From a virus, in IMG/VR virus record IMGVR_UViG_3300002835_000063, positions 44,881 through 108,880 of that record: a stretch of 64,000 nucleotides of DNA; one strand, 5' to 3'. This document shows, one piece after another, positions 3,704-30,320 of this stretch. The first letter of the stretch is position 1. Each line of letters opens with the position of its first letter. Position numbers and translations under genes: made by a program. The notes beneath the pieces are model-generated. The model was given only the letters and a program-made list of their open reading frames with translations, did not search any database and was not told the DNA's origin.

Positions 3704-5080
3704 ATGAGCAAGAGAGCTGGAAGAAAGTCTCAGGCTTCTAATGACTTTTTAGAGCCAAAAGCCCCGATTAACGTATCTGCTACGGACGTTGGAACTGCCC
3801 GTGCCTACAATGATGGCGCTGCTAGCGTTTCTTTCGAGTTACCAGGAGACTCGCCAGCCGCTACTTCTTATGAAGTTAAAGCATATAAAAATGGAACCAC
3901 TCTCGACACTACCGCAACTGGAACAACGGGGGCAAGCTCTCCTATCACAGTTGGCGGGCTAGATTCTGCCACTGGATATACTTTTACAGTATCTGCAACT
4001 AACGCTGCTGGCACATCGGCAGATTCAGCCGCATCTGCTTCTGTAACCATTACAACCGTCCCACAGGCTCCGCAAAGCCCATCAGCCACTTCTACAACTG
4101 CTAATCAAGACATCATCTCTTGGTCAAACGGTGCTAATGGTGGGAAAGCCATAACTAGCACATATTTTGTGTCAAGTGACCAGACCACAAATCCAGGCAA
4201 CGTAACCATGACCACCAACCCATGGACTGAGCCAGAAAACGGTGGTTCAACGCAGAACTATACTCTGTATCACGTAAACGATAATGGAACCTCAGCAGGC
4301 GCTTCTACCGCTAACGTAACTACGATTGCACCATTCTTCCCACCATTCTTCCCACCGTTCTTCCCATTCTTCCCGCCTTTCTTCCCGTTCTTCCCACCGT
4401 TCTTCCCACCGTTCTTCCCACCATTCTTCCCACCATTCTTCCCGTTCTTCCCACCTTTCTTCCCACCGTTCTTCCCGCCATTCTTCCCACCATTCTTCCC
4501 ACCGTTCTTCCCACCGATGTTCCCATTCTTCCCACCGTTCTTCCCACCGTTCTTCCCACCGATGTTCCCATTCTTCCCACCGTTCTTCCCACCTAGATTC
4601 CTATGTATTGAAGAAAACACAATGATCTTGACACCTAGAGGAGAGATCGCGGCTAAGGATCTTCGAGCAGGAGATACGGTATTGTCAATAGCAATTAATG
4701 AGATTGGCAATAACTCTGTTACCCCAATTGAATTCACTGTTGGTGCAACTTTGACGAGCACATCGCAGCTAGTCGAGACAAAGATTGTTGGAATTCTAGA
4801 GACCGTAAAGACCGGAATAACTTACTTCAACGGTAGGTCAGAGGCCAGATATTCTAGCCAGCAGCCACTGTTTGTTAAGTCTGATGGAGAATTCCAGGTA
4901 AAGATTGTTTCTAACATTAAGCTTGGAGATGCTCTCCTGCTGATTAATCCAGATGGAACATACACCGAAGAAGAGGTAACCGAAATTACTCTAGTTTCGG
5001 AGCCGGCCAATGTATTCCAATTCTCCTGCGAGCCATATCACTGGTTTATAGCTGGTGGCTACTTGGCCCACAATAAGTAA
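3704..5080 (+). CDS. FN3-domain protein with (PPFF)n tract and C-terminal Hint (intein-like) domain
   Basis: FN3-like segment (YTFTVSATNAAGTS); residues 210-297 almost only Pro/Phe; then CIEENTMILTPRG..AAKDLRAGDTVLS ... HWFIAGGYLAHNK*, matching Hint blocks A and F/G; AGGAG RBS. Confidence 0.85.
   Translation: MSKRAGRKSQASNDFLEPKAPINVSATDVGTARAYNDGAASVSFELPGDSPAATSYEVKAYKNGTTLDTTATGTTGASSPITVGGLDSATGYTFTVSATNAAGTSADSAASASVTITTVPQAPQSPSATSTTANQDIISWSNGANGGKAITSTYFVSSDQTTNPGNVTMTTNPWTEPENGGSTQNYTLYHVNDNGTSAGASTANVTTIAPFFPPFFPPFFPFFPPFFPFFPPFFPPFFPPFFPPFFPFFPPFFPPFFPPFFPPFFPPFFPPMFPFFPPFFPPFFPPMFPFFPPFFPPRFLCIEENTMILTPRGEIAAKDLRAGDTVLSIAINEIGNNSVTPIEFTVGATLTSTSQLVETKIVGILETVKTGITYFNGRSEARYSSQQPLFVKSDGEFQVKIVSNIKLGDALLLINPDGTYTEEEVTEITLVSEPANVFQFSCEPYHWFIAGGYLAHNK
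4331..4594 (+). repeat. Coding tandem repeat of 12-nt (PPFF) and 9-nt (PFF) units, 88 codons
   Basis: ccN ccN ttc ttc units; Pro third positions vary (cca/ccg/cct) while Phe is ttc; 22 FF and 2 MF dipeptides counted. Confidence 0.95.
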
Positions 5081-5098
5081 AAGCAGTACTACTAAACT

Positions 5099-5137
5099 AC
5101 CCCCCTTATGATTAGTAAGGGGGGGTGTTTATTTTTT
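5099..5137 (+). terminator. Intrinsic terminator after the PPFF-Hint gene
   Basis: cccccctta-tgattag-taagggggg hairpin followed by tgtttattttt. Confidence 0.8.
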
Positions 5138-5186
5138 AACTTTAATCACTATAATTGAATAGAGTGGTTTAACAGAAAGAATTTAT

Positions 5187-5921
5187 ATGAATACTTGGTT
5201 CACAAAAGACAGATCAGAGACTGACTCTAATCGAATGCCCCCAAGACCACTGGGCCAAAAAATACAAGTATTAAACCCTGCCTTAGGGATAAATGTATAT
5301 CGTGGCGCAATAACAAAAGAAGAGGGCAGGGCTTGCGTAGACATTTTAGAGTCAACCTTAAATGGCCAAACTCAATACAAATGGAGTGATGCTCAAGTTA
5401 CAAATTCTTCAAAGGCTAACCTAGAAGCAAGAAATGCCAAAGATTTTAAATTTAATTCGACTGGCCTAGGGCCAAAAAATGAAGAAAATGAAAAATTATA
5501 TGAAATGCACGAAAAAATTTTTAGGGCAGTAAAAGCATGTGTAGATGATTATGGTTATTACTGGGGCGTTGGGATAATGTCATATGAGGCTTTTAACTTT
5601 GTTAAGTATGAAGGAGCCGGGACCCACTTTAAAATTCACGCAGATCATGGCCCAACATATGTAACTACGGTGTCTATTGTCGTGTATCTCAACGATGATT
5701 ATGAGGGGGGAGAACTTTGGTTTCCCCGATTTGATTTAACCCTAAAACCACAAGCTGGAGATATAGCAGTTTTTCCGTCAACATACATCTACGAACACGC
5801 TTCGCAGGACATGATTAGTGGGACTAAGTATTCTGTTGTCATTATGAGCGACTATAATGACAGAGATAATGTAAACCAAAGAGTGCCTCAAACCATTCAA
5901 AATTATCAACTTAAGTACTAG
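5187..5921 (+). CDS. 2OG-Fe(II) oxygenase, prolyl-4-hydroxylase-like (1)
   Basis: HAD...VYLNDDYEGGEL.F...FPS...EH...GTKYS. Confidence 0.9.
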   Translation: MNTWFTKDRSETDSNRMPPRPLGQKIQVLNPALGINVYRGAITKEEGRACVDILESTLNGQTQYKWSDAQVTNSSKANLEARNAKDFKFNSTGLGPKNEENEKLYEMHEKIFRAVKACVDDYGYYWGVGIMSYEAFNFVKYEGAGTHFKIHADHGPTYVTTVSIVVYLNDDYEGGELWFPRFDLTLKPQAGDIAVFPSTYIYEHASQDMISGTKYSVVIMSDYNDRDNVNQRVPQTIQNYQLKY

Positions 5922-5932
5922 AAAGAGCCAAA

Positions 5933-6703
5933 GTGTCAGAACAGATCAACAAAACCGAAGAAGAAGTACGCCTAGAGGCAGAACAAAAAAGTAAAGAAGA
6001 GCAAAAAAATATACACGAGCGGCTAGTAAATTGGTACAAAATTGACGAGGTGACTTGGAGTTCAGCAGAAGAAATTGTTCCTGGCAGCGGCATTTGGGTA
6101 TACCATGATGTTTTGCCCGCCGAGATGAATATAATTTCTCGGTTAGAAGAAGTTTTAGATAATCCAGAAAATAACTATCAGTACCAAGAAGCAATGGTCG
6201 GATATGCAATGAAAATCCCGGAGTACCGAGACTGCGTAGATTTTAAATACAAAGAGAATGACTTTGACAATGATCAGTCAGAGTGGGGTGACAAGCTTCG
6301 ACAGTTGGCAAAAGATACAAAGTATAGACAGCTACAGGTAGTAAAAGATTACACAAGAAGATATAACATCGGCGAACTTCGTTACTGGGAAGCAACCAAC
6401 TATGTTCGCTATGGAGTTGGCCAACACTTCCAGGAACATCACGATCACGGGTACTCCTACAACTGTGTAGTTTCTTTGGTTGCGTACCCAAATGACGACT
6501 ACGAAGGCGGTGAGCTTTATTTCAGATTACAAAACATAACTGCTAAAGCCCGCGCTGGCGATGTTTTTATTTTTCCCTCTAATTTTATGTACCCACACAG
6601 GGCAATGCCAGTTAAGTCTGGAGTTAAATACTCTATGGTTACTATGCTTGATTACTCAGAAAAACTACACAATCCAGAATTTTTTAAGGAGCTAGAGAAC
6701 TAG
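5933..6703 (+). CDS. 2OG-Fe(II) oxygenase, prolyl-4-hydroxylase-like (2)
   Basis: HHD...YPNDDYEGGELYF...FPSNFMYPH...GVKYS. Confidence 0.9.
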   Translation: MSEQINKTEEEVRLEAEQKSKEEQKNIHERLVNWYKIDEVTWSSAEEIVPGSGIWVYHDVLPAEMNIISRLEEVLDNPENNYQYQEAMVGYAMKIPEYRDCVDFKYKENDFDNDQSEWGDKLRQLAKDTKYRQLQVVKDYTRRYNIGELRYWEATNYVRYGVGQHFQEHHDHGYSYNCVVSLVAYPNDDYEGGELYFRLQNITAKARAGDVFIFPSNFMYPHRAMPVKSGVKYSMVTMLDYSEKLHNPEFFKELEN

Positions 6704-7449: not shown

Positions 7450-8189
7450 TGGAAACTAAAAAAATTAAGTTTGTAGTAAATAGACCTTGGTTAAGTAAAG
7501 AAAGTAGTTCTCTGCCAAAACCAACAATAAAAACTATTCCAGATTGGTACAGAGAGGGGGATCGATATGCAAAACATCCAGTAACTGGAGAGTACTGGAA
7601 AGATCCGCAGAATGGCGGAAAAATTCCAACTTGGAAAGCTTGCCCATCGGTATATGACATCATGGGCTCTGGCTATGTTTACAGGACTCCCTGCGACATT
7701 GAATTTAAAGAAAATATTTACGGACAAATAGAAGCCAAAGTTTTAGACGAAAAAAATAAAGACTTTTTGCAACTTAGAACGCCCATGCCAGGATTTAAAG
7801 CTCCAATGGGATACCACGATGTTCATTTTGCGTGGTGGGCTGATTGGGCGGTCGAATTGCCCGAGGGGTATAGTGCACTTTACTCCCAGCCGTTTAATAG
7901 ATTTGAACTGCCGTTTATTACAACTAGTGGAATTATTGATAACGACAAAGTCCATTTGCCGGGGACAATGCCATTTTTTGTTGTAAAAGGATTCCAAGGA
8001 GTTCTACCAGCAGGAACTCCGTATGCTCAGATCTTGCCATTTTTAAGAGAGCACTGGGAATCTGAAATTGTAGATTCCATAGGTTACGAAAAAATGGTAC
8101 AAAAAAATATGGACAACAGCCAAAAATACAGGGTCCCAGACGGCGGGGTTTACCAAAAAGATGTCTGGGAACGAAGAAAATACGAATAA
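7449..8189 (+). CDS. DUF6065-related protein
   Basis: IPDWY...TWKACP...D.MGSGY...SGIIDND...GTPYAQILPF.R; distant resemblance to the upstream gene. Confidence 0.55.
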   Translation: METKKIKFVVNRPWLSKESSSLPKPTIKTIPDWYREGDRYAKHPVTGEYWKDPQNGGKIPTWKACPSVYDIMGSGYVYRTPCDIEFKENIYGQIEAKVLDEKNKDFLQLRTPMPGFKAPMGYHDVHFAWWADWAVELPEGYSALYSQPFNRFELPFITTSGIIDNDKVHLPGTMPFFVVKGFQGVLPAGTPYAQILPFLREHWESEIVDSIGYEKMVQKNMDNSQKYRVPDGGVYQKDVWERRKYE

Positions 8190-8203
8190 GATAAACTAGA
8201 CCC

Positions 8204-8887
8204 ATGAGAAACGACTACACAAATAACAACATTACTCCATATATGTCAATAACCCCTTCAGGATTTTTTGGCGATTCTGCAGAAAATATTGTTGCTATTG
8301 ACGACTTTATGACCGAAGAAGAATTAACCTATCTAAACAATTTTGCTAGGAAAAATACCATGTGGGACGCAACCGAGACTCACTATAACGAAGATGGTAC
8401 AGTGATTTATGACTCTTCTTACTGGGATCATCGAGTTGCAACGGCTCCCATATTAAAAGAAGCTGATATAAAAGTAGTTGAACTAATATCTGATATGCAA
8501 GATAGATTAAAGAAAAAAGTTGATACTTTTTTCGCAGTGGATGCTCATCCCACAAGCCCGGCGCTAGTTAGGTGGCTACCCGGACAAAGACAGCAACCGC
8601 ACGCAGATAAAGAACTACATGAGGGCGAGGGCAGGGGGAAGCCAAATGACTTCCCATACTATGACATAGCTGGCCTTTTTTATATAAACGATGACTATGA
8701 GGGAGGAGAGCTATATTTCCCTAACCAAGGTATTCAATTTAAACCAAAAGCCGGATCAGCTTACTTTTTTCCAGGAGACATGAATTATATCCACGGAGTC
8801 ACAGAAATCAAGTCTGGAATTAGATATGTTTGCCCATTTTTCTGGACAATAAAAGAGCACACTGGCAACCACAAACCAAATTTATAG
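8204..8887 (+). CDS. 2OG-Fe(II) oxygenase, prolyl-4-hydroxylase-like (3)
   Basis: PHADKE...YINDDYEGGELYF...FPGD..YIHGV.....GIRY. Confidence 0.9.
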   Translation: MRNDYTNNNITPYMSITPSGFFGDSAENIVAIDDFMTEEELTYLNNFARKNTMWDATETHYNEDGTVIYDSSYWDHRVATAPILKEADIKVVELISDMQDRLKKKVDTFFAVDAHPTSPALVRWLPGQRQQPHADKELHEGEGRGKPNDFPYYDIAGLFYINDDYEGGELYFPNQGIQFKPKAGSAYFFPGDMNYIHGVTEIKSGIRYVCPFFWTIKEHTGNHKPNL

Positions 8888-22052: not shown

Positions 22053-22883
22053 ATGAAGATATATATTGCAACTCCCATGTATGGCGGAATCGCTAAAAAC
22101 ACTTACACCATTGGACTACAAAATCTCATTGTTGCCCTATCTCAAGCTGGTCACACAATTACGACTACCGTAGTAGGCAACGAAAGCCTAATTACTAGGG
22201 CTAGAAACACTCTTGCTCACAAGTTCATGAAAACTGACTGCGACGCTCTTTTGTTTATTGATGCGGACCATGGCTGGAATGCAGGCGATGTTGTAAAAAT
22301 GATTGAGTCCGGTAAAGATTTTATTGGCGCAATTTACCCAATGAAGGGGATCAACTGGGAAAACGTACGTATAGCTGCGCTTGCGGGGAGACCAGCCAAC
22401 GAGCTAGAACTTTATTCGGGCTATTTTGCGATTAATTTGTTGCCAGAAAATCAGAATTTTAACGAAAATGAGCCATTCAAAGTTAAAGATGTCGGAACTG
22501 GAATGCTTTTCCTAACTCGAAAAGTTTTTGAGGATCTTGAGCCACACTGTAAAAAGTATAAAAACAACAATGTGGGGGAAACTGGAATCCAATTCGGAGA
22601 CATGATTACCGAGTACTTCACAACATTCATTGATGACGGTAATATCCTATTGTCAGAAGACTATGCTCTTTGCAGAATGTGGCAAAATATCGGCGGCGAA
22701 GTTTGGGCAGCTCCATGGGTTCGCATCACCCATTCGGGGGACTATAACTTCTCTGGCAGATTTGTCAGAATGTTAGAAGCTTCAAATATTAAAAAAGCAC
22801 TAGACGCAGCAAATGCTGCAAAAAATAAAAACTCAACAGAAAATAGTACAGAAGTAGAAAAAAAGGAACCTTCTACGAAGTGA
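22053..22883 (+). CDS. GT-A-fold glycosyltransferase-like protein
   Basis: IATPMYGG, ESLITRARN, FIDAD (DxD), GTGML, LSEDY. Confidence 0.7.
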   Translation: MKIYIATPMYGGIAKNTYTIGLQNLIVALSQAGHTITTTVVGNESLITRARNTLAHKFMKTDCDALLFIDADHGWNAGDVVKMIESGKDFIGAIYPMKGINWENVRIAALAGRPANELELYSGYFAINLLPENQNFNENEPFKVKDVGTGMLFLTRKVFEDLEPHCKKYKNNNVGETGIQFGDMITEYFTTFIDDGNILLSEDYALCRMWQNIGGEVWAAPWVRITHSGDYNFSGRFVRMLEASNIKKALDAANAAKNKNSTENSTEVEKKEPSTK

Positions 22884-23379: not shown

Positions 23380-24575
23380 GCTTATCGGAAAAATTAGAAA
23401 AGCTTCGCTCACCCGGGCGCAGCGGTTCGGACACCAAAACAATTAAACAACCAGAAGACTGGCGTCCAAGAATGGATATCGATACCGTTCGTGGTGGCTT
23501 TGTGGTCGGATCTCCAAGACCAGAGCACGAAGTAGTAGACGCCACTACTGTGCTGGCAGAATTTGGATTAAACCCCGCAGAGTGGAATGTAACTTCACTT
23601 AGACGAGGTAAGTGGCAAAAACACGATGGTGATTGGCTAGAGTCAGTTCGAGTAAATGTTATTCCAGCAAACCATATGGCTACAGATGAGCTTGACATAG
23701 AACAGCTCGTAGATCACATTAAAAAGTGGCGTCCTGGCAAAGACACTAAAAAGTCAACTGGCGAGGGCGCTTTTCTTGTTGCCCCAAGTGATCAGCAGAT
23801 TGGTAAAAAAGCTAACGGTGAAGGCACTGGACAGTCAGTCGAGAGAATCCTTGCCCTTACAGAAAAAGCTGTAAATCGATTTCAACAAAACCTAAAAGCT
23901 GGCATTAATCCAGGCACAATATGTCTGGCCCTACTCGGCGATCACGTAGAAGGCACCACAAGTCAAAACGGAAGACTTCAGGGTCAGGCGGCCTCCGATC
24001 TTGGTATGACAGAACAAACTAGAGTTGCTAGACGCTTGTTATTGGCTCAGGTAAAAGCTTTTGCCCCACTAGTAAACAAATTAATAATTCCAGTGATTAA
24101 TGGAAACCACGACGAAGCAACTCGTCAAGTTGTAACAGATCCAGCTGATGGTTGGAACGTGGAGATCGCCTCTGCAGTTCAGGACATCTGCGCAGAAAAC
24201 CCAGAACTAGCCCACGTTGAGTTTAGATACCCAAGCAGTGGACACCAAACCCTAACAATAAATGTTGAAGGAACTATGCTTGGAATGTTCCACGGACATC
24301 AAGCAAATCAAAATAATACCCTCAGGTATTTATCCCAGCAAGCCGCCGGTCAAACAGCTTTAGGTCAGGCAGACATTTGGATTTCTGGCCACTTCCACAA
24401 TTTTAAAACTATGGATATAGGGGAGCGCCTGTGGGTGCAAGCTCCCACAACAGATCCTGGAAGTGAGTGGTTCCGAGATCGAGCTGGAATGAATTCTAAA
24501 CCAGGATTGCTAACTATGATTCTAGGAGGAAGCTACGAACCAAGAGAGCATATCGGGGTCCTGAGTGTCAAATAA
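23376..24575 (+). CDS. Calcineurin-like metallophosphoesterase (Mre11-like phage family)
   Basis: SDQQ, LGDHVEG, GNHDE, FHGHQ, SGHFH motifs. Confidence 0.85.
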   Translation: MSLSEKLEKLRSPGRSGSDTKTIKQPEDWRPRMDIDTVRGGFVVGSPRPEHEVVDATTVLAEFGLNPAEWNVTSLRRGKWQKHDGDWLESVRVNVIPANHMATDELDIEQLVDHIKKWRPGKDTKKSTGEGAFLVAPSDQQIGKKANGEGTGQSVERILALTEKAVNRFQQNLKAGINPGTICLALLGDHVEGTTSQNGRLQGQAASDLGMTEQTRVARRLLLAQVKAFAPLVNKLIIPVINGNHDEATRQVVTDPADGWNVEIASAVQDICAENPELAHVEFRYPSSGHQTLTINVEGTMLGMFHGHQANQNNTLRYLSQQAAGQTALGQADIWISGHFHNFKTMDIGERLWVQAPTTDPGSEWFRDRAGMNSKPGLLTMILGGSYEPREHIGVLSVK

Positions 24576-25224
24576 TTTAGATACCAGAGAAAAAATTACA
24601 ATTGGTGGCGCCCCGAGATCAGGCAGCACTTATTTAAAATACTTTTTAACTTGTCAATACAAAGGATCTGAACTATTTATACAAAAAACTCACCTAGAAC
24701 TTGATCATTTAGATCGTATAAAAAATCCAGATAAAGAAGAAACTTGGTTGATACCTGTAAGAAATGCAATGGATACGGCAAAATCAATTCTAGCTTGGCA
24801 AAACCACAAAGAACCAAAAAATTTTTTAGATAAAATTTATTCAACAACTACTCCAATTTATGGAACCTTAGACTCAATTACCAGATTGTGGGAAACTATT
24901 CTTTTAGATAAAAGTAAATTTATATTTTTAGATTTTAATTTACTAATTTCCGATAAAAATTATGTCGAAACAAAACTTGAATCTAATATTTCAAGATTGC
25001 TGGTAGAAAAATGTCCATTTAAGGTTTCAGACAAAGAAATAAAAGATAACTTAGAAAAAGATGATAGAAATAATTTTTTGACTGAAGAAGATTACTTAAA
25101 TATGGGGCATATACCGAGAAATAAGTCAGAAATACTTAAAAATTTAGATATTATTTTTGACTCAGATGTTTATACCAAAAGACTTCAGTATTTAGATTCT
25201 TTGTCTTTAGAGCTTCTGTCTTAA
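24565..25224 (+). CDS. Sulfotransferase-like P-loop protein
   Basis: GAPRSGSTYL resembles the 5'-phosphosulfate-binding loop and VRNAMD the 3'-phosphate motif; lies next to APS kinase. Confidence 0.55.
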   Translation: MSNNLDTREKITIGGAPRSGSTYLKYFLTCQYKGSELFIQKTHLELDHLDRIKNPDKEETWLIPVRNAMDTAKSILAWQNHKEPKNFLDKIYSTTTPIYGTLDSITRLWETILLDKSKFIFLDFNLLISDKNYVETKLESNISRLLVEKCPFKVSDKEIKDNLEKDDRNNFLTEEDYLNMGHIPRNKSEILKNLDIIFDSDVYTKRLQYLDSLSLELLS

Positions 25225-25241
25225 AAATTGTTAGGATAAAA

Positions 25242-26009
25242 ATGATTATATTAATTTATGGACTCCCCGGATCGGGAAAAACAGAGCTAGCTAAGTCTCT
25301 ACTAAATAGAGTAGACGCCCTCCATCTCAATGCAGATGAAGTCAGGGCTGATCTGAACTCAGATCTAGGATTTTCTATTGAAGACAGAGTAGAGCAGGCT
25401 AGGCGAATGGGAGCGCTGGCTAGGCTGCTCTCTAGGCAAGGCAAACTGGTAATTGTGGACTTTGTATGTCCAACTAAAGAAACCAGAGCGGCTTTTGGTA
25501 AAGCAGACTTTAGTGTGTGGATGGACAGAATACAAGAAAGTAGATTTGAAGACACTAATCGTTTGTGGGAGACGCCACTAGAAAACGAGTATTCCCTGAG
25601 GATACCGAATGGCTGGGGAGTTGAAAGAGAAACAGACACAATAATTAACTCGGCTAATTTGTTTGATTGGAGTGCTCCTACTACGCTAATGCTTGGAAGG
25701 TATCAGCCTTGGCACGAAGGACATGAAGCACTTAAGATTGAGGGTCACCAGAGAACAGACCAGGTTCTAGTCGGAGTTCGCAATACCTACAAAACTTCTG
25801 AAAAAGATCCTCTAACTTATTCAGAGGTTGAATATTTAATATCAGAAAATAGTAAGTCTTCCAAAGAAAATACCTTAGTTCTCAGGCTTCCTAACATAAC
25901 TAACATTATTTATGGCAGAGACGTCGGGTATAAAATTGAGCACGTAGAATTAAGCCCCGAAATTCAAGCTATATCTGCAACACAAAAAAGAAAAGAGCTC
26001 GGGATATGA
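25242..26009 (+). CDS. cysC: Adenylylsulfate kinase fused to HxGH nucleotidyltransferase domain
   Basis: GLPGSGKT, LNADEVR, LGFS.EDR.EQARR, VDFVCP (APS kinase); C-terminal GRYQPWHEGH. Confidence 0.75.
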   Translation: MIILIYGLPGSGKTELAKSLLNRVDALHLNADEVRADLNSDLGFSIEDRVEQARRMGALARLLSRQGKLVIVDFVCPTKETRAAFGKADFSVWMDRIQESRFEDTNRLWETPLENEYSLRIPNGWGVERETDTIINSANLFDWSAPTTLMLGRYQPWHEGHEALKIEGHQRTDQVLVGVRNTYKTSEKDPLTYSEVEYLISENSKSSKENTLVLRLPNITNIIYGRDVGYKIEHVELSPEIQAISATQKRKELGI

Positions 26010-26218
26010 ATGTAACTAGAACAAGGTCTGCAGCAAAAGCAATTTCTTGGAGAATAATAGGAACTGCAGATACTTTTCTTATTTCATGGTTTATAACAAA
26101 AGAGCCAGTTGCAGCCGCATCTATAGCTTCTTTAGAAGTTCTAACAAAAACTATTTTGTATTACTTTCATGAGCGCGGGTGGAACTTTGTTCAGTGGGGA
26201 AGAAGGCCGTCTAAATGA
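26006..26218 (+). CDS. DUF2061-like small membrane protein
   Basis: RS.AKAISWRIIG...LYYFHER.W..V.WG. Confidence 0.75.
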   Translation: MNVTRTRSAAKAISWRIIGTADTFLISWFITKEPVAAASIASLEVLTKTILYYFHERGWNFVQWGRRPSK

Positions 26219-27285
26219 CAAAAATAGCTGTCTACACAATTGCACTAAATGAAGAACAATTTGTTGAGCGCTGGTATAAAAGCGCAAAAGATGCTGATTA
26301 TCTTCTTATTGCGGATACGGGAAGTACGGACGGAACGGTAGAAGCAGCCAAAAAGCTTGGAATAAACGTAGTAGAAATCTCGATTAAACCTTGGCGCTTT
26401 GATGATGCACGTAACGCTTCTCTAGCTTCCCTACCAATAGACATTGACATGTGTGTTCAGCTTGATATGGATGAGATCCTGTTGCCAGGCTGGCGGGATG
26501 AAATAGAAAACGCTCTTAAGCAAGGAGCAACCAGGATTAGATATAACTACACCTGGAATTGGAAAGATGAAGAAGAAACCATACCAAACATAACTTTTGG
26601 TGGAGATAAAATCCATGCCAGAAAGGGCTATAGGTGGAAGCACCCAGTCCATGAGGTAATCGTACCTTACGGTAATACTATAGAAAAGCAAGTTTGGACT
26701 CAGTTAGAGCTGCACCACCACCCAGACAAAACAAAGTCTAGGTCCCAGTACCTACCGCTACTGAAACTATCAATCGAAGAAGATCCACATGATGATAGGA
26801 ACGCCTATTATTACGCTAGAGAGCTTTATTTCCATCGGGAGTATAAAGAGGCCACCGAGCAATTTAAACGTCACCTAGGGCTTCCTACGGCCGTTTGGGC
26901 CCCAGAGAGAGCCGCTTCTATGAGATACCTAGCCAAGCTAGAGCCGGAAGAAAAAGAAGCATGGCTAGTAAAAGCTCATATGGAGGCCCCTTGGCGTAGG
27001 GAAGCCTTAGTGGAGCTTGCTCAGCACTTCTATGAGACGCAGTCTTGGGCGTCCTGTCTCCACTTTGCAGAAAAAGCCCTAGCCATAAAAGAAAAACCTA
27101 TGGACTATCTTTGCGAGGATTTTGCTTGGGGATATTTGCCTTGGGATCTAGCAGCAATTGCTGCTTACCATGAGGGAAATTACAATAAAGCTTATAAATA
27201 CGGAAATACAGCTCATCAGTTAAATCCGACAGAGAAAAGACTAGAAAATAATCTTAGGTACTACTCTGTGGGGGTTTCTTCTTAG
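26215..27285 (+). CDS. GT2-family glycosyltransferase with C-terminal TPR-like region
   Basis: NEE..V.R, DTGSTDGT, RFDDARN, LDMDE, W.HPVHE, helical repeats in the C-terminal half. Confidence 0.85.
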   Translation: MTKIAVYTIALNEEQFVERWYKSAKDADYLLIADTGSTDGTVEAAKKLGINVVEISIKPWRFDDARNASLASLPIDIDMCVQLDMDEILLPGWRDEIENALKQGATRIRYNYTWNWKDEEETIPNITFGGDKIHARKGYRWKHPVHEVIVPYGNTIEKQVWTQLELHHHPDKTKSRSQYLPLLKLSIEEDPHDDRNAYYYARELYFHREYKEATEQFKRHLGLPTAVWAPERAASMRYLAKLEPEEKEAWLVKAHMEAPWRREALVELAQHFYETQSWASCLHFAEKALAIKEKPMDYLCEDFAWGYLPWDLAAIAAYHEGNYNKAYKYGNTAHQLNPTEKRLENNLRYYSVGVSS

Positions 27286-27727
27286 TTCCCAGCGAATTGT
27301 AGGCATCCACAGCGTTCGCACTAGTCCTACTTTGCCAAGTAAACTGACATTCGTCACAGCGGACAATTTTCATTGTCGCCCAGCGGCCACCTTCAGGTCG
27401 ATCTACTGTAGCAGTTTTTAGTTTATCTGTTTTAGCTTTGCAGTTCGGGCACAACGGAAACCTTTTATATCTAATCTCTTGCCCTTCCCAATTAATTGAC
27501 AGGGTATTTCTAATTTTTTCTGGGGTTAAGCCGCCCCAAATTCCCCAAATTTGCTTGTTGTTTAGTCCCCACTGTAGGCAGTCTTTCCTAACAGGACACT
27601 TATTGCACAGTTTTTTAGCTTCCCACTGCTGAGAAGGCTTATTTGCAAAAAATTTGTCTATTTTGTCAAAGTTTTCAGGTTTAGCACATTCGGCATCTTC
27701 GTGCCAGCCCGGAGAATCAAAAAACAT
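27254..27727 (-). CDS. whiB: WhiB-family transcription factor with C-terminal zinc ribbon
   Basis: W...A.C ... AKKLCNKCPVRKDC ... GIWGG; extra CPNC...CDEC. Confidence 0.9.
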   Translation of the reverse strand: MFFDSPGWHEDAECAKPENFDKIDKFFANKPSQQWEAKKLCNKCPVRKDCLQWGLNNKQIWGIWGGLTPEKIRNTLSINWEGQEIRYKRFPLCPNCKAKTDKLKTATVDRPEGGRWATMKIVRCDECQFTWQSRTSANAVDAYNSLGTKKKPPQSST

Positions 27728-29315: not shown

Positions 29316-30320
29316 TTATAACCTCTCCAATCTAGATCCTACCAGAATTTTTTCGACTTCAGACCCAAGCTCATTTATTGAAGGAAGTGATTCTAGGTAC
29401 ACGCCCCGCTGGGTAGAGGCCAATTGCTGCCTCTGCGACGGTGACATGTCTTCTACTTGATAGGGCAAAAGCGACCAACTATCAGCAAAATTTGTTGTTT
29501 CATTCCAATCTGTAACAATGGGAGTAGATGTATTAAAGGCTTGAATTATTCTATAGTTCCACCAAGTAATCAAATTTCTTTCTTGGGGTGGAATAATTAG
29601 TCCCATGCCATTCCTAATGACATCTAGAGCATAGGTATCATCTGTCTTTTTGCCGGCCTTGGTCGGTTGTTTGGGGAAAACAGTGGATTTGTTTATATGA
29701 TCTACCCAGCTATTTTTGATATTTTCTACTGCCCAGTAGTCTTTTCGACCAATTCTTGGTACTTCTGGATCAATAAAAAGTCCATCAAAATTAACACCAA
29801 ACGTATTAGAACTATCTCCAAATCCTAGGGCAGTTGAAACTTTTTCATCACTATTCCAAGGCAGCCCCGGGTAAATAATTGTCGGCCAATCGGAAACCAA
29901 CATATGAGCAATAGCTTTTTCAACTATGCTTGGATTTTTTGAGACGGTGTTGTATCCCTCGCGCTTCGAATAAAAACTGCCAAAAAGTATAGACGGATTT
30001 TTTAAAGAAGCATTTATGCTATTTTTGTACTGCCAAACTTGGGGACTGTCTACAACTAATTTAATTTTTGGGGAGTTAAACATTAGGCCTAGAACATGTA
30101 GGGCACCATAAAGCTTGTTTGCACTTAGTGAAGTTGGCGGTAAAAATCCAAATATAATGTGGTCGTATTTTTCTAAATCATCTTTAGTCCAAGAAAAACT
30201 GGGGGATGACCAGGTTATGTCTGCATACTCAGAAAGTACAGAATCTAAAATATTAAAAAAACTAAAGTTACTTGGTTTTTTGCAGTGATGGGAGCCCATC
30301 CCAGTAAATAAAATTTTCAT
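29316..30320 (-). CDS. Hypothetical protein, possibly GT-B-fold glycosyltransferase
   Basis: MKILFTG start and late WW..RIIQA....TPIVTDW segment resemble GT-B enzymes; weak call. Confidence 0.45.
   Translation of the reverse strand: MKILFTGMGSHHCKKPSNFSFFNILDSVLSEYADITWSSPSFSWTKDDLEKYDHIIFGFLPPTSLSANKLYGALHVLGLMFNSPKIKLVVDSPQVWQYKNSINASLKNPSILFGSFYSKREGYNTVSKNPSIVEKAIAHMLVSDWPTIIYPGLPWNSDEKVSTALGFGDSSNTFGVNFDGLFIDPEVPRIGRKDYWAVENIKNSWVDHINKSTVFPKQPTKAGKKTDDTYALDVIRNGMGLIIPPQERNLITWWNYRIIQAFNTSTPIVTDWNETTNFADSWSLLPYQVEDMSPSQRQQLASTQRGVYLESLPSINELGSEVEKILVGSRLERL

Follow-up and report, generated by a model that had tools for sequence, protein, structure and literature searches.

On balance, we read a compact group of genes from a virus as a self-contained phage sulfation module, in which a protein of 255 amino acids would act as a miniature synthase of 3'-phosphoadenosine-5'-phosphosulfate (PAPS) and feed the adjoining sulfotransferase. 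The genes lie in the 3' 64 kb of the 108,880-bp IMG/VR virus record IMGVR_UViG_3300002835_000063 (CheckV completeness approximately 65%); this whole stretch is called the window below. The formation of PAPS takes two activities, ATP sulfurylase, an enzyme of HxxH nucleotidyltransferase fold, and adenosine-5'-phosphosulfate (APS) kinase. In the proposed mechanism the C-terminal HxGH domain of the protein would adenylylate sulfate with ATP to yield APS, and the N-terminal APS-kinase-like domain, as strongly indicated by its fold and its APS-contacting residues, would phosphorylate the 3'-hydroxyl of APS to yield PAPS. The sulfotransferase encoded upstream would then use PAPS on an acceptor, candidates being glycans or proteins of either the phage or its host. 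The DUF2061 protein encoded downstream would be an accessory of sulfate adenylylation, perhaps as a tether associated with the membrane or as a partner that delivers sulfate. Uniting both steps in one protein would pull the unfavourable sulfurylase reaction forward and would free the phage from a host that may make little APS or PAPS.

Four genes lie head to tail in the cassette, and the second of them encodes the fusion of the two domains:

24565-25224, + strand: sulfotransferase-like open reading frame (ORF), 219 amino acids
25242-26009, + strand: fusion ORF, APS-kinase-like domain and HxGH nucleotidyltransferase, 255 amino acids
25242-25661, + strand: fusion N-domain, residues 1-140, APS-kinase-like P-loop kinase with a short lid (PF01583, fold)
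25662-26009, + strand: fusion C-domain, residues 141-255, minimal HxGH nucleotidyltransferase (mini-NT), candidate sulfate adenylyltransferase (motifs, profile, fold)
26006-26218, + strand: DUF2061 small helical-hairpin protein, 70 amino acids (PF09834, E=1.3e-22)
26215-27285, + strand: GT2 glycosyltransferase with tetratricopeptide (TPR) repeats, 356 amino acids (PF00535, E=4.9e-5; phrog_13126, E=6.5e-113)

The start of the sulfotransferase gene overlaps the upstream exonuclease gene by 11 nt, a gap of 17 nt separates the sulfotransferase from the fusion, and ATGA overlaps are found at both the fusion/DUF2061 and the DUF2061/glycosyltransferase junctions. A preliminary description of this DNA, made from its letters, had placed four closely packed ORFs here, and their coordinates proved exact. 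The fusion has 6206 near-length homologues (4594 cluster representatives; PHROG 10255, 'kinase'), and the start of the sulfotransferase gene is kept in its seven relatives; for both reasons the cassette is not a product of chance.

The fusion protein and the adjoining sulfotransferase

The N-terminal domain matches Pfam APS_kinase (PF01583) over residues 2-84 (profile positions 4-91 of 152, E=3.5e-17), as expected from the preliminary description. Its Pfam score of 63.3 bits stands against a gathering threshold of 21.1, and its score for the NCBIfam equivalog TIGR00455 is 62.4 bits against a cut-off of 138.7. In the structure model of the fusion (predicted local distance difference test (pLDDT) 95.6, predicted template modelling score (pTM) 0.88) the best match of the N-domain is CysC of M. 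tuberculosis (4rfv/4bzq), with Z 18.4, a root-mean-square deviation (rmsd) of 1.6 Å over 127 amino acids and 33% identity. Other APS kinases are matched at Z 16-18, gluconate kinase at 15.8 and the remaining P-loop kinases at 13 or less. The side chains of CysC that contact APS are D480, R483, F492, R497 and F576, together with K456 (PMC4373884). In a HMMER alignment K456, D480, R483, F492 and R497 correspond to K13, D32, R35, F44 and R49 of the fusion, and a motif alignment pairs F576 with F102. The P-loop G7-L-P-G-S-G-K13-T is present; across 56 homologues of 32-84% identity K13 and R35 are invariant, F44 and R49 nearly so, and D32 is at least nearly invariant. Fold, P-loop and the APS-contacting Asp, Arg, Phe, Arg and Phe are therefore common to the fusion and CysC. 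The differences, apart from the score under the TIGR00455 cut-off, concern the lid and the LDGD motif. The lid comprises about 30 residues in canonical APS kinases, of which about 20 are missing here, leaving only about 6 between strand 4 and F102, and LDGD reads LNAD, with Asn for the first Asp and the second Asp kept as D32. Alignment and model together strongly indicate that the domain would work as APS kinases do and phosphorylate an adenosine 5'-phospho-anion, as a divergent, short-lid member of that family.

The presence of an HxGH nucleotidyltransferase in the C-terminal part, likewise described before, is supported by motifs, profile and fold. CTP_transf_like (PF01467) is matched at residues 150-195 (E=0.011), with H158-E-G-H161, and two ATP-binding signatures are found, GRYQPWHEGH (152-161) and ISATQKR (244-250). 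In the 56 homologues G225-R226 is invariant and R180 nearly invariant. The profile of the fusion family matches nicotinamide mononucleotide (NMN) adenylyltransferases (NMNAT), namely those of M. jannaschii (E=5e-11) and M. thermoautotrophicum (4e-9), and Francisella NadM (1.5e-10). In the fold search with the fusion the only rows for the C-domain are NadM (2qjt, Z 10.2) and M. jannaschii NMNAT (1f9a, Z 10.1), over 107-108 amino acids, the rest of the list being matches of the N-domain. With the archaeal and NadM-type NMNATs, its nearest relatives, the mini-NT shares a GRFQPFHxGH-type motif, the NP(F/L)T turn and ISxTxxR. It is about 55 residues shorter, and since three strands are predicted, core strands 4-5 of NMNAT would be absent together with the intervening helices. 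Profile positions of approximately 146-219 align to NMNAT residues 3-82 only, and PRK01153 scores 26.2 bits on the fusion against a cut-off of 127. The mini-NT also lacks the ER of NPFxxxER and has R180 and R226 as new conserved arginines. As to the NMN-binding residues, Y224 is conserved in the mini-NT, and the position aligned by eye to the ribose-binding Asn of NMNAT varies in the family. Unlike these NMNATs, the mini-NT comes without exception with an APS-kinase-type domain or with DUF2061 and never with genes of nicotinamide adenine dinucleotide (NAD) metabolism.

Sat belongs to the same structural superfamily, and the reaction proposed for the mini-NT, ATP + sulfate -> APS + pyrophosphate, would be that of the Sat and CysDN ATP sulfurylases. 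In contrast to these, the mini-NT is far smaller, has no detectable sequence membership in either group and has no GTPase partner. PF01747 was not matched by the single fusion protein, by the family profile or by the phage record, and PUA_2 was not found in the fusion. GRYQPWHEGH and YGRDVGY of the mini-NT merely resemble the Sat motifs QxRNPxHxxH and GRDHAG, and the domain has about 110 residues compared with about 200 in the Sat catalytic domain. Judged from sequence and model, the mini-NT is by descent a trimmed NMNAT-like domain and not a small Sat, so that any case for its function has to come from its context. Trimming to three strands would fit a small substrate.

The kinase-first order is that of animal PAPS synthases, as had been pointed out before. 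In metazoan PAPSS1/2 (1x6v) an N-terminal APS kinase is followed in one chain by an adenylyltransferase of the HxxH/HxGH superfamily, and PAPS for sulfotransferases would be the product common to both. The whole fusion model aligns with 1x6v domain by domain (Z 17.2, 243 residues, rmsd 16 Å). The fusion differs by its size (255 versus about 620 amino acids), its domain arrangement, its shortened kinase lid and its second domain, which is not of Sat type (no PF01747, no PUA-like domain, about 110 residues, three strands).

The protein encoded at 24565 belongs to a rare subfamily, with just 8 database matches including its own cluster. Pfam Sulfotransfer_3 (PF13469) is matched below threshold (residues 11-64, E=1.6e-3, 19.2 bits versus a cut-off of 27), and precomputed annotation assigns PF13469 or PF00685 to its relatives P0125-P0127. 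An alignment of the 8 relatives reveals an invariant 5'-phosphosulfate-binding loop (G14-T22, including P17-R-S-G-S-T22), an invariant K41-T42-H43 with the catalytic His, and invariant R66 and S74. Their spacing of 8 residues is that of the 3'-phosphate motif of sulfotransferases, for which an Arg-to-Ser spacing of 8 residues was defined in PMC4199319. With the AlphaFold2 (AF2) model (pLDDT 83.9) the top Foldseek matches are all PAPS sulfotransferases, at weak E-values. VIA-align places 185-200 of the 219 residues on mycobacterial Stf9, NDST1, 3-OSTs and cytosolic SULT1/SULTs at Z 11.8-10, and all 50 chains that it lists are sulfotransferases. The modelled protein is thereby confirmed to have the PAPS-sulfotransferase fold with the PAPS-binding motifs kept, and the earlier sulfotransferase-like assignment, which a different fold would have overturned, stands. 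The acceptor class cannot be read from these structure matches. A scan of viral contigs with this sulfotransferase gave no relative, and deposited phages gave no match.

Phage and bacterial contexts of the module

The fusion is also present in cultured phages of Xylella, Xanthomonas, Stenotrophomonas and Clavibacter, none of them with an annotated sulfotransferase in the surrounding 5 kb. We collected a first set of 80 IMG/VR loci with fusion copies of 64-72% identity. In 75 of these loci the fusion is immediately followed by DUF2061, and the gene that precedes the fusion differs from locus to locus (WhiB, an Asp/Arg-hydroxylase-like cupin, RuvC, trypsin and others). It is a sulfotransferase in 8 of the 80, at gaps of -3 to +20 nt, and these sulfotransferases form at least four clusters unrelated by BLAST. 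Scans of whole records from 40 fusion-bearing viruses of this set, mostly fragments, detected Sulfotransfer_1 in 10, Sulfotransfer_3 in 6 and PAPS reductase in none. A second set comprised 80 more distant loci, 74 of them in kinase-then-nucleotidyltransferase order. Here an L053-type sulfotransferase, exceeding the Pfam cut-off, is encoded within 8 kb upstream of the fusion in 25 loci; in 12 of these the distance is no more than 600 nt, and in 8 no more than 100 nt. Of 50,697 deposited phage records only 10 contain this type, and none of those 10 has the fusion. The pairing of sulfotransferase and fusion is thus recurrent and far above background, which supports PAPS as the product; that the module supplies PAPS to sulfotransferases is strongly indicated. 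Since sulfotransferases are present and PAPS reductase is absent from the 40 scanned records, sulfation rather than assimilation fits the phages.

Other viral loci provide further observations on these genes. The Synechococcus phages S-SKS1, S-SRM01 and S-SCSM1 (HQ633071, MW015081, MK867354) have an annotated L110-type sulfotransferase and no kinase/mini-NT fusion. In a 123-kb viral genome, complete according to CheckV, a RuBisCO large-chain-like gene (L035:3325-4563, 412 amino acids, PF00016 E=3e-42) lies just 5' of the fusion. At 14 of 80 viral loci, among them L012 (1068-1631), the gene for the cupin mentioned above (187 amino acids) shares 4 nt with the start of the fusion gene, and 2-oxoglutarate-Fe(II) oxygenases or a luciferase-like monooxygenase take its position at others. 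Hydroxylation by such neighbours might create the acceptor for sulfation.

Related proteins of other composition occur as well. P0199 (311 amino acids, 7 cluster members, marine samples) joins a mini-NT 45% identical to that of the window to a complete canonical CysC (PF01583, 212 bits, positions 2-151 of 152, lid included), and a 68%-identical copy lies amid ordinary cellular genes in an OCS116-cluster single-cell genome (L164). In P0165 the order is reversed, with the mini-NT first and a short-lid kinase second, and at two loci (L149, L307) kinase and mini-NT are separate adjacent genes. In the ESM Atlas, every one of the clusters nearest to the C-domain is a standalone mini-NT or an APS-kinase fusion. 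At the bacterial locus L305 a Sulfotransfer_3 gene follows the fusion directly. On one strand of the 25%-GC alphaproteobacterial contig L307 we find siroheme genes (CbiX, uroporphyrinogen methylase), sulfite reductase, CysH, DUF2061, a kinase with a short lid and the mini-NT. These genes make up an operon for assimilatory sulfate reduction in which the module takes the activation slot. The earlier proposal that the module serves sulfation and not assimilation therefore fits the phages and does not extend to the family as a whole, because the L307 module sits with cysH and sulfite reductase.

Two further kinase/mini-NT fusions, P0134 and P0266, begin with a DUF4118 membrane domain of the kind present in KdpD-type sensors, which suggests membrane attachment in some lineages. 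In a 5.3-Mb alphaproteobacterium (L306) the fusion is flanked by genes for a PAPS-independent arylsulfotransferase (ASST, 5026-6645) and a histidine-phosphatase-family protein (7646-8281).

The assignment of the 26006 protein to DUF2061 is clear (PF09834, 80.4 bits versus a cut-off of 23.1). Its earlier description as a membrane peptide, which agrees with the naming of the family as integral membrane proteins, is less secure: the two helices of about 20 residues each reach a Kyte-Doolittle maximum of 1.2, under the classical transmembrane threshold, and contain conserved charged residues. The helices are only moderately hydrophobic. The family is found in 53 of 301 alphaproteobacterial genomes. 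It forms the C-terminus of CysN in P0329 (Rhodoplanes metagenome-assembled genomes), L288, L289 and L292, and of a CysN-CysC protein in L290 (3944-6100, a translated stretch of 719 amino acids in one open frame); in L272 it follows CysN-CysC. CysD adjoins the DUF2061-bearing fusions of L288, L289 and L290. In the phage locus L112 DUF2061 and the mini-NT make up one ORF of 192 amino acids, and in L112, L113 and L116 the DUF2061 match is directly upstream of the mini-NT, with no kinase found there. Fused to CysN or CysN-CysC beside CysD, and to the mini-NT, DUF2061 goes with sulfate adenylylation. A complex prediction for fusion and DUF2061 scored 0.00; made without controls, it carries no weight either way. 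Beside or fused with CysC and DUF2061, the mini-NT fills the genomic slot that CysDN holds elsewhere. The fourth gene of the cassette was correctly described as a closely packed glycosyltransferase (PF00535, TPR families, ATGA overlap with DUF2061). It is probably not a core part, as a glycosyltransferase neighbours the fusion in only 2 of 80 related viral loci.

The distribution of the mini-NT was compared with that of known sulfurylases in the 301 alphaproteobacterial genomes, canonical CysC being defined by E<=1e-30. Eight genomes have a mini-NT, and 5 of them, one of 5.9 Mb, lack both Sat and the CysD/CysH family. Among 172 genomes with canonical CysC and no mini-NT, 3 lack both Sat and a strong CysD/CysH-family match, and these three exceptions carry no mini-NT. 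The difference of 5/8 versus 3/172 gives a Fisher p=2e-6 (p=8e-7 without the unpublished genome G282, on which only the count of 8 depends), in a small sample of genomes whose completeness is not established and whose lineages are not independent. Only the comparison with canonical-CysC genomes is informative.

We consider it somewhat more probable than the contrary that the mini-NT makes APS from ATP and sulfate. The argument is that of an intact nucleotidyltransferase, trimmed for a small substrate, which is linked to APS kinases in either order and also to DUF2061, fills the CysDN slot and marks kinase-bearing genomes without canonical sulfurylase. The minimal adenylyltransferase of the preliminary description finds strong indirect support in domain fusions, gene neighbourhoods and phyletic complementarity, whereas its sequence and the fold matches listed for it place the domain nearest to NMNAT and not to Sat. 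Taken further, there is a slightly better than even chance that the mini-NT, as a descendant of NMNAT, represents a third class of ATP sulfurylase, the smallest known and used by thousands of phages as well as by bacteria without Sat or CysDN, with DUF2061 as a dedicated partner shared with CysDN. The 255-residue protein, with its short-lid APS kinase, would then be a PAPS synthase by which phages sulfate molecules in hosts unable to activate sulfate.

Alternative explanations and implications

Several observations weigh against reading the fusion as a PAPS synthase. The mini-NT is nearest to NMN adenylyltransferases in sequence and, among the fold matches listed, in structure; no Sat catalytic domain is among the matches of the fusion-family profile, and no Sat model was matched. 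In the N-domain the lid is shortened, its Lys and Arg are absent and LDGD has become LNAD; with catalytic-site residues of the lid lost and the first Asp replaced, an altered kinase substrate is possible. No sulfotransferase is seen in about two thirds of the viral records with the fusion, many of which are fragments, and in Xylella phages Sano and Salvo, Clavibacter phage 33 and Stenotrophomonas phage DLP_6 no sulfotransferase or DUF2061 is annotated within 5 kb on either side of the fusion. The bacterium of L307 (G229) also has a genuine Sat (L308:1793-2857), located in a NeuB-type glycan cluster. In the phyletic sample 3 of the 8 mini-NT genomes have CysD/H-family genes, PF01507 (PAPS_reduct family) does not distinguish CysD from CysH, and the lack of Sat and CysD/H in mini-NT genomes is not significant against all 293 other alphaproteobacterial genomes (p=0.16).

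Part of this evidence would be accommodated if only the kinase half served sulfation and converted host APS to PAPS, the C-domain being a regulatory nucleotide-binding domain, an oligomerisation element, a stand-in for the lid or an enzyme of some other adenylyl transfer. The affinity of the C-domain to NMNATs agrees with such a role, the truncated lid might be completed by the fused domain, and G229 has a Sat that could supply APS. Fungal ATP sulfurylase contains a non-catalytic kinase-like domain, so that fusions of this kind can be regulatory. We nevertheless regard this explanation as unlikely, if worth serious attention, because HxGH, ISxTxxR and further invariant arginines are kept across homologues of 36-84% identity, because the mini-NT is also joined to a complete canonical CysC, which has no use for a lid substitute, and because it is fused to DUF2061 without any kinase. 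Moreover, kinase-bearing genomes with a mini-NT are mostly without canonical sulfurylase. An assimilatory role, in which the fusion as an auxiliary metabolic gene boosts sulfate activation by the host for cysteine and the adjoining sulfotransferase is incidental, seems improbable to us. Viral CysC-family genes (adenylyl-sulfate kinase) from Lake Biwa were interpreted as an aid to assimilatory sulfate reduction, several freshwater hosts being without the full pathway (Okazaki et al., 10.1101/655167). These genes, likened to ours by annotation only, possibly belong to the same family, and the second domain, the DUF2061 partner and the linkage to sulfotransferases do not figure in that account. 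In L307, too, the module follows cysH and sulfite reductase. Yet PAPS reductase is absent from the 40 scanned records as well as from the present phage record, and sulfotransferases are repeatedly adjacent and translationally coupled to the fusion. In the literature we found no paper on the second domain, on the function of DUF2061 or on the sulfotransferase linkage, and no functional study of DUF2061 or of a phage APS kinase or sulfotransferase.

The NMNAT-like features of the C-domain could also be taken at face value, the protein combining an NMNAT with a ribosyl or nucleotide kinase (NadR-like or a new NAD kinase) and restoring NAD(P) during infection. The GRFQPFHxGH-type and ISxTxxR motifs are what such an enzyme would have, and in profile and fold searches NMNAT and NadM come out best. 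However, only the first 75 or so NMNAT positions align, strands 4-5 and the nicotinamide-stacking helix are deleted, and the score is 26 versus 127 bits. The mini-NT is consistently paired with APS-kinase-type domains, canonical CysC included, and it occurs in the company of sulfotransferases, CysH and CysN-linked DUF2061 and of no NAD salvage genes; we give this explanation very little credence. The divergent kinase, with its LNAD motif and short lid, and a transferase that is not Sat leave the substrate formally open, and kinase and mini-NT might make another 3'-phosphorylated adenylyl compound (AMP-X, with X not sulfate), for instance in counter-defence. As every informative context is sulfur-specific and R35 and R49, the counterparts of phosphosulfate-binding residues in CysC, are invariant or nearly so, this too is highly improbable. 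On the grounds given here against the alternatives, NAD-salvage and generic 'AAA ATPase' readings of the fusion were set aside.

If the reading as a miniature PAPS synthase is true, sulfate activation has a third, unrecognised enzymatic solution, and genome-based statements that an organism cannot activate sulfate need re-checking, including those on streamlined freshwater and marine bacteria and in surveys of pathway completeness. Many environmental phages would carry a complete donor-plus-transferase sulfation system, and sulfated surface molecules of phage or host would be an overlooked layer of their interaction. For enzymatic sulfation, a PAPS synthase of 255 residues would be of practical use as well.

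Surroundings of the cassette

No near-identical genome to the window record was found among deposited phages. No tRNA genes were found in the 64-kb window, and no genes for a CysQ-type PAP phosphatase, Sat or PAPS reductase across the whole phage record. Neighbouring genes encode a WhiB regulator, a primase-polymerase/D5 helicase, a DenV-type glycosylase and an Mre11-like exonuclease. From WhiB and from related loci, an actinobacterial host is suggested, and we take the virus for a lake-type actinobacterial phage. Two ORFs near the cassette match no Pfam family, one at 29316-30320 (334 amino acids) and one at 22053-22883 (276 amino acids), which matches PHROG 1574 (function unknown). The WhiB-like protein (27254-27727, - strand, 157 amino acids) is extended by a C-terminal half of about 85 residues that contains two Cys-x-x-Cys pairs and looks like an added zinc ribbon.

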